Assembly (NCBI GenBank): GCA_963763775.1
Contig: CAVXPZ010000004.1
Location: 1 to 64,000, forward strand
DNA: 64,000 bases
Reading direction: 5' to 3'
Origin: an uncultured Chloroflexia bacterium
GTDB lineage: Bacteria; Chloroflexota; Limnocylindria; Limnocylindrales; CSP1-4
Of this stretch, positions 1,411 through 8,213 are shown in pieces (within the stretch, counting starts at the first letter, position 1; every line of letters starts with the position of its first letter). The notes under the pieces are model-generated. The model made no database searches. It was not told the DNA's origin and saw only the letters and a program-made list of their open reading frames with translations. The position numbers and the translations under genes were made by a program.

Positions 1411-3129
1411 TCAGCTGACCTCGCCGACGTCGACTCGCACGTCCGCGAAGATCCGGCCGGCTTCCGCGATGACCTCGTCCGGCGCCATCGGCGGCGGGAT
1501 CTCGATGTTGGTCGCAACCGCGCGCACCGCGACGTCGCGGCCGAGGAACGCCCCGAACGCAGTCTCGAGCTCGGGGCGCTTGCGCTCGGCCTGATCCTTC
1601 AGGAAGCCCCGGCTCTCCGGGAAGCCGAGGGTCACGACATTGCCGTCGACCGCCATCGGACGGCACTCGTTGATGACCGCGCGGGTCGCCGGGCCGACCG
1701 AAGCCACGATCTCCGGCCAGCCCGCCTGGAGACGGGCGAGGTCGCCGCTAGCCGACACGACCGGTAGGGGCGTCGTGGACGCGCGTCCGCCATCGGCCTC
1801 AGATGGCGAGCTGCGGTCGGACGTCGAGGACGCGGCGACGGACGACGCCCCGGGCGCGGGGATCGCCTCGGCCGCGGGCGTCTCGGCGGGCGCGGCCGGA
1901 TCGGTCGTTCGGGCAGCCGCGTCGACGGGCACCGGCGCGACCTCGATCGGGACCGCGACGGGCTGCGCCGGCCGGCGCGAGGGCTGTGAAGGAACGGGTT
2001 CGATGGGCTGGGATGCCGTCGTGCGAGCTGGCGCCGCCGATGGCGCGGGACGCCTGGCGACAGCGCCGGCCGAGGCCGTCGAGGATGGGTCGGCGCCGGA
2101 GCCGGCGAAGAGCGCGAGCTCGAGCTGGAGCCGGAGACCGCCCACGCCCGCGCGGTCCGGGTCGATGGCGGCGAGTCGGCGCGCGGCGTCGGTCAGGCCG
2201 GGCGTCATCGCGTGATCGGTGCCGGACAGGCTTTCGACCAGTCGGGCGCGGATCACCTCGATGGTCTGGTCGAGCAGGGTCCGCACGTCGCGACCGCGCT
2301 CGTCCATGGCGTCGAGCAGGGCGATCCCGGCGGCGGCATCCCCGTCGATCAGCGCCGTGACGAACCCGTCGACCGCGTCGGCGTCGGCGAGACCCAGGAG
2401 GTCGCGCACGCGGGCCTCGTCGATGGTGTCCGGCGCGGACGAGAGGAGTTGGTCGAGCATCGATTCGGCGTCGCGCATGCCGCCCGCGGCGAGGCGGGCG
2501 ATGAGGTGCAGCGCCGCCGGGTCCGCGGTGCGACCGTCGGCCTCGAGGATCCGGGCGAGCTTGCCTTCGATCTCCGCGGTCGTCAGCCGACGAACGTCGT
2601 ACCGCTGAAGCCGCGACAGGATCGCGGGCGGGAACTTCGACGGCTCGGTGGAGGCGAACATGAACGTGACGAAGTCGGGCGGTTCCTCGAGCGACTTGAG
2701 GAGGGCGTTCCACGCCGGCCCCGTGATCTGGTGGGCCTCGTCGAGGATGTAGACCTTGCGGCGCAGCTCGCCGGGGGGATACGGCAGGCGCTCGCGGAGA
2801 TTCCGGATGCTCTCGATGCCGTTGTTGCTGGCGGCATCGATCTCGACCAGGTCGAGTGTCGTCCCCTCGCGGATGCCGACGCACGACGGGCAGACGTCAC
2901 AGGCGTCGCCATCCTGGAGGTTCGTGCAATTGAGGGCCTTGGCCAGGATCCGGGCGAGCGAGGTCTTGCCGGTGCCGCGCGGACCGACGAAGAGGACCGC
3001 GTGGGACACCCGATCGGTCCGGACGCCGTTCCGGAGCGTCTCGACCACCGCCTCCTGGCCCACGATCTCCGCGAAGGTCTGCGCGCGCCAGCGGCGATAG
3101 ATGACCTGGTGCTGGACGGGTGAGGTCAC
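1411..3129 (-). CDS. dnaX: DNA polymerase III subunit gamma/tau
   Basis: YRRWR..F.EIVGQE, GPRGTGKTS, EIDAASNNG, LDEAH, LLKSLEEPP; GTG start 3129 after GGAGGAGG. Confidence 0.97.
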   Translation of the reverse strand: MTSPVQHQVIYRRWRAQTFAEIVGQEAVVETLRNGVRTDRVSHAVLFVGPRGTGKTSLARILAKALNCTNLQDGDACDVCPSCVGIREGTTLDLVEIDAASNNGIESIRNLRERLPYPPGELRRKVYILDEAHQITGPAWNALLKSLEEPPDFVTFMFASTEPSKFPPAILSRLQRYDVRRLTTAEIEGKLARILEADGRTADPAALHLIARLAAGGMRDAESMLDQLLSSAPDTIDEARVRDLLGLADADAVDGFVTALIDGDAAAGIALLDAMDERGRDVRTLLDQTIEVIRARLVESLSGTDHAMTPGLTDAARRLAAIDPDRAGVGGLRLQLELALFAGSGADPSSTASAGAVARRPAPSAAPARTTASQPIEPVPSQPSRRPAQPVAVPIEVAPVPVDAAARTTDPAAPAETPAAEAIPAPGASSVAASSTSDRSSPSEADGGRASTTPLPVVSASGDLARLQAGWPEIVASVGPATRAVINECRPMAVDGNVVTLGFPESRGFLKDQAERKRPELETAFGAFLGRDVAVRAVATNIEIPPPMAPDEVIAEAGRIFADVRVDVGEVS

Positions 3130-3162
3130 GCCTCCTCCGATCGAGGGCGAGCCGGGTCGAAG

Positions 3163-3430
3163 TGCCGTGCACCCACCGTCGATCGAGAACGTCCCCGTGC
3201 CCACCATGACGAGCGGCTCGGACCAGGCCGTTCCGCGGCACCCGGCGATGATCGCTTAGTGCTGCTTCCTTCCGGACCTGACACGGTTCGCGGTTCGCCG
3301 CTGCGCGGGACCCGATCCTCAACGTCGCATCGTCGGGCGGCGTTCGGAGACGGAGACCTCGGGAGGGGATTCAGCCCTGCTGGAGCGGATTGCAGGTACA
3401 GGGCACCGCTAGTTCCCCGCCTAGCACGGC
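3163..3430 (-). ncRNA. ffs: signal recognition particle RNA, large (Alu-domain) bacterial type
   Basis: Helix-8 motif TCAGGTCCGGAAGGAAGCAGC; 5' GCCGTGCTAGGCGGGGAACTAGCGGTGCCCTGTACCTGCAATCC pairs with 3' GGGTGCACGGC; upstream of dnaX; TATCCT -10 just upstream. Confidence 0.93.
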
Positions 3431-3734
3431 TCAGGAAGGATACCCGGTTGCCGACGGGTCGGCGGGGGGCGGAGGCGTGCGTCATGGCACCCGACGAGGG
3501 CGTGCCGCCGGTTCGGCGGACGGTGGCCGGCAGCCCGCGCGGAACTCCTGGTACCCAGATCCGGACGGCCGCACTGGCAATCGGGCTCGATCTGGCAGAA
3601 CCGCGTCGTTTCCTGGAGGGTGCACGAGGGGAGACCGGCGACACCGGTACCAGGAGTACCGAGCGCACAGATGCGCCAACGCTGCCAGCGGCCGTCAGCG
3701 TGACGAGCGACGCGCCGCGAGATGGCGTGGCCGG

Positions 3735-3806
3735 CAAGGCGGAGCCGAGCACTGGAGCGAGCGCACATCAGCGTGCGTGAGCGAGCGCGCACAGGGCGAC
3801 AACGCC
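3735..3806. repeat. ~70-bp degenerate repeat copy 1, downstream of tRNA-Ser(GGA)
   Basis: CAAGGCGG..GAGCAC..GAGCGAGCGCAC...AGCGTGCGTGAGCGAGCGCGC....CAACGCC, shared with 3995-4065. Confidence 0.8.
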
Positions 3807-3836
3807 GCCAGGACGCGTCAGATCGAGGAGCGGGGG

Positions 3837-3924
3837 TGGCGGAGAGGGCGGGATTCGAACCCGCGACGGGTTGCCCCGAACCGCATTTCCAGTGCGGCGC
3901 CATAGTCCACTAGGCGACCTCTCC
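3837..3924 (-). tRNA. tRNA-Ser(GGA)
   Basis: Anticodon arm CCGCA-CTGGAAA-TGCGG, long variable arm, GGTTCGAATCC, encoded CCA. Confidence 0.97.
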
Positions 3925-3994
3925 CCGAAGGGAACCCGACGCTCAGGCGTGTGGCTCAGCGGCGATCCCGACCGTCGGCTCGGGTGGACGAGGC

Positions 3995-4065
3995 CAAGGC
4001 GGCGAGGAGCACGTGAGCGAGCGCACCCGAGCGTGCGTGAGCGAGCGCGCGGACGCGCCAACGCC
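3995..4065. repeat. ~70-bp degenerate repeat copy 2, downstream of tRNA-Ser(CGA)
   Basis: Aligns to 3735-3806 at a 260-nt offset. Confidence 0.8.
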
Positions 4066-4094
4066 GGCATCGGCCGCGCCGAGACGACGGTCTG

Positions 4095-4180
<86 letters not shown>

Positions 4181-4251
4181 GCGCGAGAGGATACCAAACC
4201 CGGCGACCGGGACCCCCAGGCGATGGTCCCGGGTCAGGCGTGGCGGCCCGG

Positions 4252-4692
4252 TCAGCCGACCGGCAGACCGGCGAACAGCGCCTGGGCCTCGTCGCGGCGG
4301 ATGCCGCTGACGACCTTGATGCGCCGCGGGAGCGAATCGTGCTGGGCGAGCTGGATGACGGTGCCGGCCGCGCCGTCGATGTCGTTCGGGAGGGCGAAGA
4401 CGAGCGCCTCGACATCGCTCTCGAGGAGCGCCCCGACGCACATCGCGCACGGCTCGAGGGTCGTGAAGATCGTGGCATCGGCGAGCCGCGTCGAGCCGAG
4501 CTTCCGGGCGCCTTCCCGCAGCGCGACGATGACCGCATGGGCCGTGGGGTCGTTCGTCTCCTGGACGCGGTCGTGGGCACGAGCCACCATCGCCTCGTCG
4601 ACGACGGCGACCGCCGCGATGGGGCGCTCGCCGCGCGAGGCCGCGAGCTGGGCCTCGGCGAGGGCCTCGCCCATGAACAATTCGTAGTTCAT
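4252..4692 (-). CDS. tadA: TadA-like nucleoside deaminase family protein, catalytic Glu replaced (HAV)
   Basis: DPTAHAV, TLEPCAMC, GAAGT; tadA-tRNA-ffs-dnaX synteny; TAGCAT-7nt-ATG leaderless start. Confidence 0.88.
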   Translation of the reverse strand: MNYELFMGEALAEAQLAASRGERPIAAVAVVDEAMVARAHDRVQETNDPTAHAVIVALREGARKLGSTRLADATIFTTLEPCAMCVGALLESDVEALVFALPNDIDGAAGTVIQLAQHDSLPRRIKVVSGIRRDEAQALFAGLPVG

Positions 4693-4814
4693 GGCTTCGA
4701 TGCTAGCAGACGGGGCGGGCCCGGCCGTCACCGCCGGCGGGGGTCTGGCGGCGGCCGGACGCAACCCGTTCGCAACCCTCGTGGCGCGCGGCCGAGGCGT
4801 ACGATTCGGTCGCC

Positions 4815-5993
4815 ATGACCACCAAGAAGCGGATCGGGATCCTGACCGGCGGCGGCGACGTCCCCGGCCTCAACGCCGTCATCAAGAGCGTCGTCTATCG
4901 CGCGACCGAGGCCGGGTATGACGTCCTCGGGATCCGGCGCGGCTGGGAGGGCCTGACCCACGTCCGACCCGACGTCGGCGTCGACCCCGAGTACATGCGG
5001 CCGCTCGACCGGACGAACACGCGGACGATCGACCGGACCGGCGGCACCATCCTGCACACGTCACGGACGAACCCGCGGAAGATGCGCGCGGCGGGCCTGC
5101 CGCCGTGGCTCGACGACGCCGCGCGCGCCCGGTTCGCCAAGGACGACGGCATCTTCGACCTCACGCCCCTGGTGCTCGACCATCTCGGGCAGCTCGGGAT
5201 CGACCAGCTGGTCACGATCGGCGGGGACGACACGCTGTCCTACTCGCAGGTCCTCGTCAACGAGGGCGTCCCGCTCATGGCGATCCCGAAGACGATGGAC
5301 AACGACGTCCAGGGGACCGAGTACTGCATCGGCTTCTCGACGGCGATCACCAGGGCGAAGGAGGCGATCAACCGCCAGCGGACGACGCTCGGCTCGCACG
5401 AGCGGATCGGCGTGTTCCGCATCTTCGGCCGCGACGCCGGCTTCTCGGCGCTGTACACGGCGTACGTGACCTCGGGGCGCTGCGTCATCCCCGAGGCGCC
5501 GTACGACCTGGAGGCCCTCGCCGAGATCCTCGCCGCGGACCATGCCGCCAACCCGAGCCACTACGCGTTCGTCATCACCGCGGAAGGGGCGATCTGGCAA
5601 GGTGCCCAGATGGCCGACGTCGGGGACGCCGACGCGTTCGGCCACCGCCACAAGGCCAATGTCGGCGAGGCCCTCGCGAGCGAGATCAAGAGCCGGACCG
5701 GCATCGAGACCCTCGCGTCCGAACTCACCTACGACCTCCGGTCAGGCGAGCCGGACTCGATCGACTCCATGGTCGCGACGACCTTCGCCAACGTGGCGAT
5801 GGACCTCGTCGAGGGCGGGGTCGTCGGCCGGATGGTGGCCATCCAGGACGGGAAGTACGCCCACACGGCCCTCCCCGATCCGGCGCTCGGGCCGCGCAAG
5901 GTCGACGTCCCGGTGATGTACAACGCGGCGCGGTTCCGACCCCGCTACGACGGGAAGCTCGGGGATCCGATGCTGCTGGTGGGGCTCGACTAG
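4815..5993 (+). CDS. pfkA: 6-phosphofructokinase family protein, probably PPi-dependent
   Basis: ILTGGGDVPGLN, GGTILHTSR, IGGDDT, PKTMDND. Confidence 0.92.
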   Translation: MTTKKRIGILTGGGDVPGLNAVIKSVVYRATEAGYDVLGIRRGWEGLTHVRPDVGVDPEYMRPLDRTNTRTIDRTGGTILHTSRTNPRKMRAAGLPPWLDDAARARFAKDDGIFDLTPLVLDHLGQLGIDQLVTIGGDDTLSYSQVLVNEGVPLMAIPKTMDNDVQGTEYCIGFSTAITRAKEAINRQRTTLGSHERIGVFRIFGRDAGFSALYTAYVTSGRCVIPEAPYDLEALAEILAADHAANPSHYAFVITAEGAIWQGAQMADVGDADAFGHRHKANVGEALASEIKSRTGIETLASELTYDLRSGEPDSIDSMVATTFANVAMDLVEGGVVGRMVAIQDGKYAHTALPDPALGPRKVDVPVMYNAARFRPRYDGKLGDPMLLVGLD

Positions 5994-6882
5994 TCCTCGA
6001 GGCCGGACAGCCCGCGGATCGCCCGGGCGAGCGCCGACATGTCGTCTTCGGCGTGGCCCTTCGCGATGAGCCCGGATTCGAGCTGCGCGGCGAGCGCGCT
6101 GACCGGCAGCGCGGCGCCGAGTTGCGCCGCGAGGTCGAGGGCGATCCCGAGGTCCTTGCGATGGAGCGCCACCTTGAACCCGAGCGGGTAGTCGTTCGCG
6201 AGCATCCGACCGCTTCGATTGGCGAGCACCCAGCGACTGGGCGGCTCCGCCCCCGAGTGCCTCGACCACCTGCTCGACATCGAGACCCGCACGGATCGCG
6301 AGCACGATGCCCTCGGCCACGCCAAGGTAGGTGCCGGCGAGGATGACCTGGTTCACGGCCTTGACCGCCTGGCCGGCGCCGATCGGACCGACGTGGGTGA
6401 TGGTCTTGCCCATCGCCGCGAGCACCGGCCGGGCCCGCTCGACGTCGTCCGCGTCGCCGCCGACGAAGATCGTGAGCGTCGCCTTCTGGGCACCCTCGCT
6501 GCCGCCGGAGACCGGCGCGTCGACCATCGAGAGGCCGCGCTCGCGAAGGCGCGCGGCGAAGTCCCAGCTCCCCGACGGGGCGATCGTCGAGCAGTCGATG
6601 ATGAGCATGCCATCCGTGGCGCCGTCGACGACCCCGTCCGGCCCGAACAGGACGGCCTCGACGTCCGGCGTGTCCGAGACGCAGACGACCGCGATGTCGG
6701 CCTCGGCGACGGCCGCCGCCGGGCGTCTCGGCGATCGCCACGCCGAGCTCCGCGAGCTCGGGGGCACGTCCCGGCGTCCGGTTCCAGCCGGTGACCGAGA
6801 ACCCGGCCCGGGCGAGATTGGCGGCCATCGCGGCACCCATGGTGCCGAGGCCGAGGAACGCGACGCGGGTCAGGTCGGTCAC
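5990..6882 (-). CDS. NAD(P)-dependent beta-hydroxyacid dehydrogenase (3-hydroxyisobutyrate/tartronate semialdehyde reductase family); frameshifts near 6720 and 6237
   Basis: FLGLGTMGAAMA, DAPVSGG, GAGQAVKAVNQ, GFKVALHRKDL spread over three frames. Confidence 0.88.
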
Positions 6883-6891
6883 TGGATCACC

Positions 6892-7272
6892 CTACAGGAA
6901 GAGGAACGCGATGATGGCGAGCGCGGGTGGCACGGCCTGGAGCATCGCCGCCCGGAGCATCGCCCGGTCCGTGGCGATCAGCACGACGCCGGCGAGCGTC
7001 ATGCACGCGCACGCGAAGAGGACGATGGCGCGTCCGGCGTCGGGCGATCCCGTGGCGATCAGGATCAGGCCGCCGAGGATGCCCGCGGCGAGGAACAGGT
7101 TGTAGAAGCCCTGGTTGAAGGCCATCGGCCGGACGATGTCGGCATCGGCCTGGCTGGTCAGCCCGAAGCGCGCCCAGGTCGCCGGTCGCGCGAACGCGAT
7201 GCTCTCGAGGTAGAAGAACCCGACATGGAGGAGCGCCGCGAGCAGCGCGAAGGCCTGGGCGATCAGGGGCAT
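6892..7272 (-). CDS. DUF1304 family membrane protein
   Basis: LHVGFFYLE and AFNQGFYNLFLA motifs; four TM segments. Confidence 0.88.
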   Translation of the reverse strand: MPLIAQAFALLAALLHVGFFYLESIAFARPATWARFGLTSQADADIVRPMAFNQGFYNLFLAAGILGGLILIATGSPDAGRAIVLFACACMTLAGVVLIATDRAMLRAAMLQAVPPALAIIAFLFL

Positions 7273-7334
7273 GGCGGCATGCTACCCGGCGTGGGCCGAG
7301 GGGATGCCGCGATCGCAACGGCATCGAAGGGAGT

Positions 7335-7410
7335 TGGCGCGCCCGGCGGGACTCGAACCCACGACCTTTAGGTCCGCAACCTAACGCTCTATCCACTGAG
7401 CTACGGGCGC
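7335..7410 (-). tRNA. tRNA-Arg(GCG)
   Basis: GCGCCCGTAGCTCAGTGGATAGAGCG TTAGG-TTGCGGA-CCTAA AGGTC GTGGGTTCGAGTCCCGC CGGGCGCGCCA. Confidence 0.95.
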
Positions 7411-7429
7411 ACGCGATGCCGACGGAGGA

Positions 7430-7521
7430 TGGCGGAGAGGGAGGGATTCGAACCCTCGAAGCAGGTTACCCCACTTGGCGGTTTAGCAAACCGCTGCACT
7501 AGACCTCTATGCGACCTCTCC
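7430..7521 (-). tRNA. tRNA-Ser(GCT)
   Basis: Anticodon arm GCGGT-TTGCTAA-ACCGC, long variable arm, CCA end. Confidence 0.97.
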
Positions 7522-7615
7522 GGGCGTCGGCGGCCGACATGCTACCACGAGGGTCCGGACCGCCCGGAGTGCGCTACCCTCGACCGCTCACCCATCGGCT
7601 GATCGAGGAGGTCCG

Positions 7616-8213
7616 ATGACCGACGAACCGCGCATCACGCGCGAACCGACCTCAGAGGAGGCGATGCGATCGGCCTGGATCGGCGAGCCGCCGGTCCACG
7701 GGACGACCATCGACCTCGCGGACTACGACCCCGACGTGGCCCGTCCTCTACGAGCGCGAGGCGGCCCGGATCCGCGCGGCGCTCGGCGACCGCGTCCGTC
7801 GCCTCGAGCACATCGGGTCGACGTCGGTCCCGGGACTCGCGGCCAAGCCGATCATCGACATCGTCCTGGCCGTCCCGGACACCGCGGATGAGCCGTCGTA
7901 CGTGCCGGACCTGGAGGCGGCCGGGTACGTCCTCACGGTCCGCGAGCCCGACTGGTACGAGCATCGGCTGTTCAAGGGGCCCGACACGGACATCAACCTG
8001 CACACCTACCCCGACGGGTGCGCGGAGATCGACCGGTATCTCGCGTTCCGCGACCGCCTCCGGACGCACGACGACGAGCGCGACCTGTATGAGCGGGCGA
8101 AGCGCGAGCTCGCGGCGCGCGAGTGGCGGTACGTCCAGCACTATGCCGATGCCAAGACCGAGGTCGTCGAGGGGATCATCGCGCGGGCGGCCGAGAGCGA
8201 CGCCCTGTCATGA
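7616..8213 (+). CDS. GrpB family protein (frameshift near 7735)
   Basis: YDP.W..; EHIGSTSVPGLAAKPIIDI; NLH; FRDRLR; Y..AK; GAGGAGG RBS. Confidence 0.88.

Follow-up and report, generated by a model that had tools for sequence, protein, structure and literature searches.

Probable inosine-free CGN decoding and a retained TadA homologue without its catalytic glutamate in Chloroflexota of the class Ca. Limnocylindria

The window analysed here, the whole stretch of 64,000 nucleotides, forms the start of contig 4 in a four-contig assembly of 3.30 Mb (71% G+C, rated 87% complete) from a soil member of the Chloroflexota, class Ca. Limnocylindria. All five tRNA genes that ARAGORN called in the window are on the minus strand. 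One of them is a tRNA-Arg gene with a GCG anticodon (Table 1), which matched the Rfam tRNA family (RF00005; gathering score 29) over 7338-7410(-) with 71.6 bits and an E of 1.2e-13. G34 of this tRNA is the complement of base 7377, G37 is present in the same loop, and the D-loop, AGUGGAUA, carries A at position 20. The arginine identity elements of tRNA-Arg are C35, G36, and A20, and all three are found in the tRNA at this locus. An earlier interpretation made from the sequence alone (hereafter the sequence-only reading) had described an arginine tRNA with G34, G37, A20, and an encoded CCA, and the gene is genuine by ARAGORN, by Rfam, and by its letters. Across the genus, tRNA-Arg(GCG) genes are 95-100% identical, and the anticodon is GCG in 30/30 loci read.

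The adjacency of this gene to tRNA-Ser(GCT), also part of the sequence-only reading, was borne out by ARAGORN, which places the two on the same strand, 19 nt apart. Related loci contain the same Ser(GCT)-Arg(GCG) pair, with tRNA-Ser(GCT) as the conserved partner in the window's own family (f1), in a family of the same order with genomes of ~1.1 Mb (f2), and in f4, which like f3 and f5 belongs to the same class. The 19-nt spacing suggests that the two tRNAs are co-transcribed, to which one RNA-library contig covering 7335-7458 lends weak support. The RNA runs that matched contain only 5-7% of the sampled words each, and their contigs lie mainly over tRNA genes; those over 7375-7377 show no other letter, G and I being read alike in cDNA. 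A promoter scan of 3000-7800 found no sigma-70-like site, and the same interval contains two terminator-like sites versus ~1 expected by chance.

A TadA-like gene without the catalytic glutamate lies in the same part of the window. Translation probably begins at the ATG at 4692, the point from which relatives align; the open frame extends to a TTG at 4764 (4252-4764). The frame reads T-A-H-A-V at 4545-4531(-), giving HAV in place of the HAE motif, with EPCAMC further on. The minus-strand order of genes over 1411-4692 is tadA-like, tRNA-Ser(CGA), tRNA-Ser(GGA), SRP RNA, and dnaX; Bacillus subtilis has the same tadA-scr-dnaX order. The position of the HAV gene upstream of tRNA-Ser(CGA) is that of the HAE tadA of other Chloroflexota; tRNA-Ser(CGA) is a conserved tadA neighbour in the phylum, and was found within the fetched 3.4-kb locus of the HAE tadA in 4/5 ACG-bearing Chloroflexota families. 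A few RNA-library pieces of depth 2-3, from one run, fall on the TadA-like frame, and contigs of this kind cannot show transcription or modification.

Table 1. Features of the locus, with one further arginine tRNA gene from elsewhere in the genome
Feature	Position	Strand	Basis or remark
dnaX	1411-3207	-	after SRP RNA
SRP RNA (large)	3165-3429	-	179 bits; after tRNA-Ser(GGA)
tRNA-Ser(GGA)	3837..3924	-	next in row after tRNA-Ser(CGA)
tRNA-Ser(CGA)	4095..4180	-	ARAGORN; directly downstream of TadA-like gene
TadA-like gene, no catalytic Glu, 146 aa + stop	4252..4692	-	translation; profile, PDB, and fold matches
Val54 codon, in the place of Glu (HAE to HAV)	4531..4533	-	translation TAHAVIV
tRNA-Arg(GCG), encoded CCA, anticodon loop UUGCGGA	7335..7410	-	ARAGORN; Rfam tRNA; sequence read
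Anticodon GCG, positions 34-36	7375..7377	-	plus-strand letters cgc; ARAGORN puts the anticodon at position 34
tRNA-Ser(GCT)	7430..7521	-	ARAGORN; Rfam tRNA 55.6 bits; 19 nt upstream of tRNA-Arg(GCG), same strand
tRNA-Arg(tcg)	contig C3 759444-759521		ARAGORN

Over the 4 contigs, ARAGORN called tRNAs for 20 amino acids and SeC with one gene per anticodon, and the arginine tRNAs of the whole genome carry the anticodons GCG, TCG, CCG, TCT, and CCT. This contains the GCG + TCG + CCG set without ACG that the sequence-only reading had expected; tRNA-Arg(ACG) is absent from the ARAGORN calls over the 4 contigs (3.30 Mb, 87% complete). Five of the 52 calls are odd, long ones, including a 95-nt 'Gly(acc)' that is the sole A34 call, and none of the five gave an Rfam tRNA match even at E<=1; there is thus no credible A34 tRNA in the genome. 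The 'Gly(acc)' call, lacking confirmation by Rfam, was set aside as an ARAGORN artefact. As the genome encodes no A34 tRNA, a tRNA A34 deaminase would be without a substrate in this host. The gene set therefore combines the absence of ACG and of any A34 anticodon with the presence of a tRNA-Arg(UCG) for CGA, as is appropriate for a CGN box decoded without inosine. From established wobble rules, tRNA-Arg(GCG) would read CGC and CGU, tRNA-Arg(UCG) would read CGA and some CGG, and tRNA-Arg(CCG) would read CGG.

The tRNA-Arg(CCG) gene (contig C3:528118-528193) is 89% identical to the tRNA-Arg(GCG) gene of the same genome and has a common loop, UUNCGGA; in f2 and f4 the CCG gene looks different and has the loop CUCCGAA. 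The CCG gene found in part of the genus may be a copy of the GCG gene with a changed anticodon. With regard to the origin of the GCG gene, the 89% likeness would appear to point the other way, as f2 and f4 have CCG genes unlike it, and 76 nt are too little for origin to be judged by likeness.

Two further tRNA genes of the genome are recorded here as side observations. A tRNA-SeC(tca) gene was called by ARAGORN on contig C4:629693-629789, and the genome has a tRNA-Ile(UAU) (contig C3:703896-703972; locus L308:97-173) along with only two CAU tRNAs. The TilS PP-loop domain (PF01171) had no match in the host genome, while 14/14 control genomes matched. In another genome of the genus (G010) a PF01171 match was likewise not found and tRNA-Ile(UAU) is present; elsewhere in the class the match was only weak in G025 (f2), and strong in G093 (f4) and in G094 and G091 (f3). 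It would appear that this order has dispensed with a second 'universal' wobble enzyme.

The sequence-only reading had pointed to a CGA codon in pfk, and the triplet at 4965-4967 is indeed in frame in the phosphofructokinase frame 4815-5993(+) (Pfam PFK, 222 bits). Genome-wide, at 71% G+C, CGA accounts for 12.9% of CGN codons, 12.2% of arginine codons, and 11.6 per 1000 codons, and the A-ending codons of seven other four-codon boxes are far below this at 0.8-6.8%. That reading had also proposed comparing CGA use with ACG-using relatives, and here the share of CGA among CGN hardly differs (0.130 in f1 versus 0.101 in the ACG-bearing f3/f5), which gives no additional support for a switch. CGA use was accordingly rejected as a test, as an ACG-bearing family with a nearly equal share makes it non-discriminating.

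The genome contains two genes of the CDA fold, the HAV protein and a Cdd-like gene with a PCGxCRQ motif, and no second TadA-like gene or active paralogue was found among them. The HAV TadA of the sequence-only reading is thus the one TadA homologue of the genome, and does read HAV. It scores 116.1 bits against the NCBIfam TadA model NF008113, below the cut-off of 150, and matches the Pfam families MafB19-deam (87 bits) and dCMP_cyt_deam_1 (76 bits), while TadA chains in the PDB match it at E 1e-24 to 1e-28. An AlphaFold model of the protein (pLDDT 93.8) has the TadA fold, with a Foldseek TM of 0.90 and an rmsd of 1.6-1.8 Å versus TadA from E. coli (1z3a), S. aureus (2b3j), and B. subtilis (7cph), to which it is 35-38% identical.

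Alignment of 107 unique orthologues revealed that the zinc ligands H52, C82, and C85 are kept in 107/107, while the column of the catalytic glutamate, Val54 in the query, contains V in 104, I in 2, and L in 1, versus E in 27/27 TadAs of the sister families. At the site of the active-site Asn ('HN' motif), 95/107 HAV proteins have Asp and 3/107 have Glu, versus Asn in the 27/27 sister HAE TadAs. The HAV consensus is without the NH motif and stops before the FFxxRR stretch found at the C-terminus in the HAE clade, and in place of the long C-terminal anticodon-binding helix the model ends in a helix of 8 residues (133-140). The long C-terminal helix of TadA is described as essential for binding of the anticodon stem-loop, the glutamate as the known proton shuttle across the deaminase family, and eukaryotic ADAT3 as inactivated by a Glu-to-Val change at this place together with a shortened C-terminal helix (PMC8216470). 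With Val54 for Glu and most of the C-terminal helix gone, the HAV protein is very probably not an A34 deaminase, and by analogy with TadA biochemistry it would be inactive.

A library search (1.84 billion representatives) gave, among the best 150 matches, 50 with V at the glutamate place, 86 with E, 4 with another residue, and 10 with no motif, and nearly all V forms among these matches are at least 54% identical to the query. One protein, P0049 (154 aa), reads HAV at 43% identity and extends further at its C-terminus, and may represent a Glu-less TadA of another lineage.

The distribution of the two anticodons within the class was assessed in one draw of 300 genomes using ACG and GCG patterns that differ only at position 34. 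The ACG pattern was found in 0/91 genomes of f1, 0/12 of f2, and 0/103 of f4, that is, in none of 206 relatives, versus 60/92 of f3 and 1/2 of f5, while the GCG pattern was found in 83/91, 10/12, and 89/103 genomes of f1, f2, and f4, respectively, versus 4/92 of f3 and 0/2 of f5. In f1, f2, and f4 the tRNA-Arg genes include the 3' CCA, which is mostly missing from those of f3 and f5. In the genus of the host, an HAV orthologue occurs in 21/24 other genomes and reads HAV in all of them, with two of the 21 (in G007 and G022) split over frames, which could be assembly error or real breakage. The 80 related f1 loci read HAV in 78 cases and HAI in 2, and the anticodon is GCG in all 32 that carry a tRNA-Arg in the flank. 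In f4 the motif is HAV in 20/21 loci and HAL in 1/21, and in f3 and f5 it is HAE in 28/28. The co-occurrence of GCG and HAV that the sequence-only reading had predicted across the clade therefore holds, with GCG accompanying HAV, HAI, or HAL in f1 and f4 and ACG accompanying HAE in f3 and f5. In f2 no genome gave a TadA match (0/16 and 0/4), and the four loci read of 17 with a CDA fold are Cdd-like; the f2 tRNA-Arg(GCG) is 99% identical to that of the window, and its gap between Arg(GCG) and Ser(CGA) is filled by other genes.

At 87% completeness, a tRNA-Arg(ACG) and an active TadA could in principle lie in the unassembled part of the host genome. We consider this scarcely credible, as every amino acid is served by the tRNA set and each anticodon by a single gene, 0/206 relatives of f1, f2, and f4 match the ACG pattern, and no HAE copy was found in the f1 loci read.

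Several genomes depart from the pattern of their family. Three f3 genomes (G094, G139, and G297) have GCG instead of ACG. TadA was not found in these three, which have RibD-like and Cdd-like genes only, the RibD-like call being made by long frames and by analogy with loci of the phylum sample; they look like further, separate switches. In G094 (locus L236) the GCG gene lies 20 nt from tRNA-Arg(TCG), where relatives carry ACG, and the anticodon and T arms of this tRNA are like those of the f4 GCG tRNA. Another f3 genome, G186, has both the ACG and the GCG patterns, and in G120 (f3, 89% complete) ACG is present and TadA was not found. In f4, G138 has an HAV copy and an extra HAE TadA of 184 bits (contigs C60, L186/L271, and C56, L221/L279), and this genome matched neither of the two anticodon patterns. 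Its HAE copy does not group with the class clade and could reflect bin contamination or gene transfer.

In a phylum sample drawn as 400 Chloroflexota genomes, each at least 85% complete, with counts given per 401, the GCG pattern was found in 286/401 genomes and the ACG pattern in 37/401, with both patterns in only G382 and G477. Ten GCG genomes from 10 families contained no TadA above the cut-off, their best matches being RibD-like or other HAE deaminases, while 5/5 ACG genomes from 5 families contained an HAE TadA (150-194 bits). GCG without TadA is thus the usual state in Chloroflexota, and the Glu-less TadA is a peculiarity of f1 and f4. The decoding switch put forward in the sequence-only reading is accordingly no special, local one, as GCG is the majority state of the phylum and is in print for other phyla. 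The family and phylum counts take in unpublished genomes (G151, G171, G175, G180, G188, G194, G237, G322, G367, G406, G516, G600, and G663), and loci L198, L201, and L243 come from two of these; without them each count shifts by a few at most, the conclusions are unchanged, and no claim rests solely on them.

To place the HAV proteins relative to active TadAs, a FastTree phylogeny of 42 sequences was generated. The HAV and HAL tips (30/30) form one clade with a support of 0.96 and a stem of 0.71 substitutions per site. This clade is sister to the HAE clade of f3/f5 with a joint support of 1.0, and the resulting class clade nests among other Chloroflexota TadAs. The sisterhood of HAV and HAE proteins, together with their common tRNA-Ser(CGA) neighbour, is consistent with vertical inheritance of tadA by the class ancestor, where an active enzyme would mean that an A34 substrate was then present. 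The class ancestor would thus have had ACG and an active TadA, as f3 and f5 have today; on the stem of f1, f2, and f4, GCG would have replaced ACG and TadA would have lost its glutamate once; the small-genome f2 would later have lost tadA, and f1 and f4 would have kept the Glu-less protein under purifying selection.

The sequence-only reading had proposed an A34-to-G34 change in place, in an ACG slot adjacent to tRNA-Ser(GCT); this found no support, as the f3 ACG gene lies at another locus, alone or beside tRNA-Arg(TCG) and not beside tRNA-Ser(GCT). The GCG gene could have originated by point change, replacement, or transfer. It is also conceivable that GCG is ancestral in Chloroflexota and that f3/f5 and a few others regained ACG and TadA by transfer, so that no ACG-to-GCG switch occurred here. 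The preponderance of GCG over ACG genomes across many families, a 31-nt D-arm and anticodon stretch of the window tRNA that is identical in the Chloroflexota family f52, and the different loci of the f1/f2/f4 GCG gene and the f3 ACG gene all speak for such a history, but it accords poorly with a single class clade of HAV and HAE proteins nested among Chloroflexota TadAs, and with the tRNA-Ser(CGA) neighbour that HAV genes have in common with the HAE genes of 4/5 other families. We therefore regard it as unlikely, though deserving of serious consideration. Taken together, we consider it highly probable that CGN codons are decoded in this lineage without inosine and that the Glu-less TadA is left without an A34 substrate. 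This state would go back to a single ancestral event in which GCG took the place of ACG and the glutamate was lost, after which the protein would have served in a role other than at A34.

Whether the HAV gene is decaying or maintained bears directly on this role. Loss of the catalytic glutamate, the long stem branch of 0.71, loss of the gene in f2, and the split matches in two members of the genus are what would be expected of a pseudogene decaying after loss of function. However, 107 unique intact CDSs were found in two families, and Nei-Gojobori analysis of these gave a median dN/dS of 0.23 (5555 pairs with dS of 0.1-1.5; 5-95% range 0.10-0.51; maximum 0.89). The alignment of 42 sequences, including HAE relatives, retains 12 invariant and 17 nearly invariant columns, and the fold is predicted with confidence (pLDDT 93.8), making decay a very remote prospect. 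The 'dead TadA' of the sequence-only reading is thus right as to the lost glutamate and wrong as to the decay that the word implies. As the gene in f1 and f4 is under purifying selection, another function is suggested.

One candidate for such a function is that the protein is still an enzyme, with a shifted catalytic acid or acting on something else, for example mRNA, a different RNA position, or a free base. Purifying selection and the intact zinc ligands of all 107 orthologues are compatible with this, as is the acid side chain near the pocket (Asp41 in the query; Asp 95/107, Glu 3/107). However, seven HAE proteins among the best 150 relatives also have Asp at this position, so that Asp is not tied to loss of the glutamate, the helix that holds RNA is shortened, and the missing glutamate is the proton shuttle of the family, whose replacement by Val inactivates ADAT3 (PMC8216470). 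We consider continued catalysis quite improbable. A non-catalytic role, in RNA binding or as a structural, zinc-bound dimer, might be guessed at with low confidence. In its fullest form, which we put forward tentatively and with less than even confidence, the Glu-less TadA of f1 and f4 would be a pseudo-deaminase with a new, selected role and no catalytic partner, either binding RNA, perhaps the G34 anticodon loop, or serving as a zinc-bound dimeric scaffold; it would then be a convergent and simpler counterpart of ADAT3, repurposed rather than lost. If true, such a pseudo-deaminase would show that a universal tRNA-editing enzyme can be repurposed rather than lost.

TadA generally counts among the near-universal and essential enzymes of bacteria. 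Chloroflexota are an abundant soil and freshwater phylum that is mostly without it, and in the samples analyzed the presence of TadA tracks one tRNA letter almost perfectly, which amounts to a natural experiment on wobble decoding. Annotation pipelines likely call the HAV protein a 'tRNA adenosine deaminase', a name that is probably wrong in these genomes. What is new here is the retained Glu-less TadA, the tRNA-Arg(GCG) itself being ordinary for Chloroflexota. A literature search of main texts found no report of the GCG state in Chloroflexota or of a retained Glu-less bacterial TadA.

Comparable decoding systems have been described in other phyla. In Mollicutes, GCG is described as replacing ACG, along with a UCG tRNA and the loss of tadA (Yokobori et al. 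2013, PMC3711424). As in the stepwise model set out there, UCG also occurs in ACG-bearing relatives of the present host; unlike Mollicutes, the host is a free-living organism whose 3.3-Mb genome has 71% G+C, has kept tRNA-Arg(CCG), and has kept tadA without its glutamate. All sequenced Thermotogae and Spirochaetes are reported to carry GCG in the place of ACG (Ehrlich et al. 2021, PMC8007984). Spirochaetes, and one proteobacterial class that we take to be the epsilon class, are reported to have lost the inosine modification (Diwan and Agashe 2018, PMC6063277). The Chloroflexota samples resemble Thermotogae and Spirochaetes, as these are described, in a phylum-scale state of GCG for ACG with TadA absent. 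The 2021 review (PMC8007984) surveyed Chloroflexi among its phyla but does not name them as GCG users.

At the level of the protein, the HAV homologue shares the DPTAHA and EPCxMC zinc motifs with bacterial TadA, and is unlike it in having Val for Glu and Asp for Asn, in lacking the NH motif and the FFxxRR helix, and in scoring below the cut-off. It is like eukaryotic ADAT3/Tad3 as described in PMC8216470, which is derived from TadA, has undergone the same Glu-to-Val change and shortening of the C-terminal helix, and is kept by selection. ADAT3, however, is described there as having an extra N-terminal tRNA-binding domain and an active ADAT2 partner, while the HAV protein is a single domain of 146 aa in a genome with no active paralogue, and thus has the Glu-to-Val change and shortened helix of an ADAT3-like protein but neither the active partner nor the N-terminal domain. 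As the HAV protein matches ADAT3 with 47 bits versus 93 bits for E. coli TadA, the likeness to ADAT3 appears to be convergent, and the Glu-less protein offers a simple bacterial system in which to ask what an ADAT3-like inactive deaminase can do alone.
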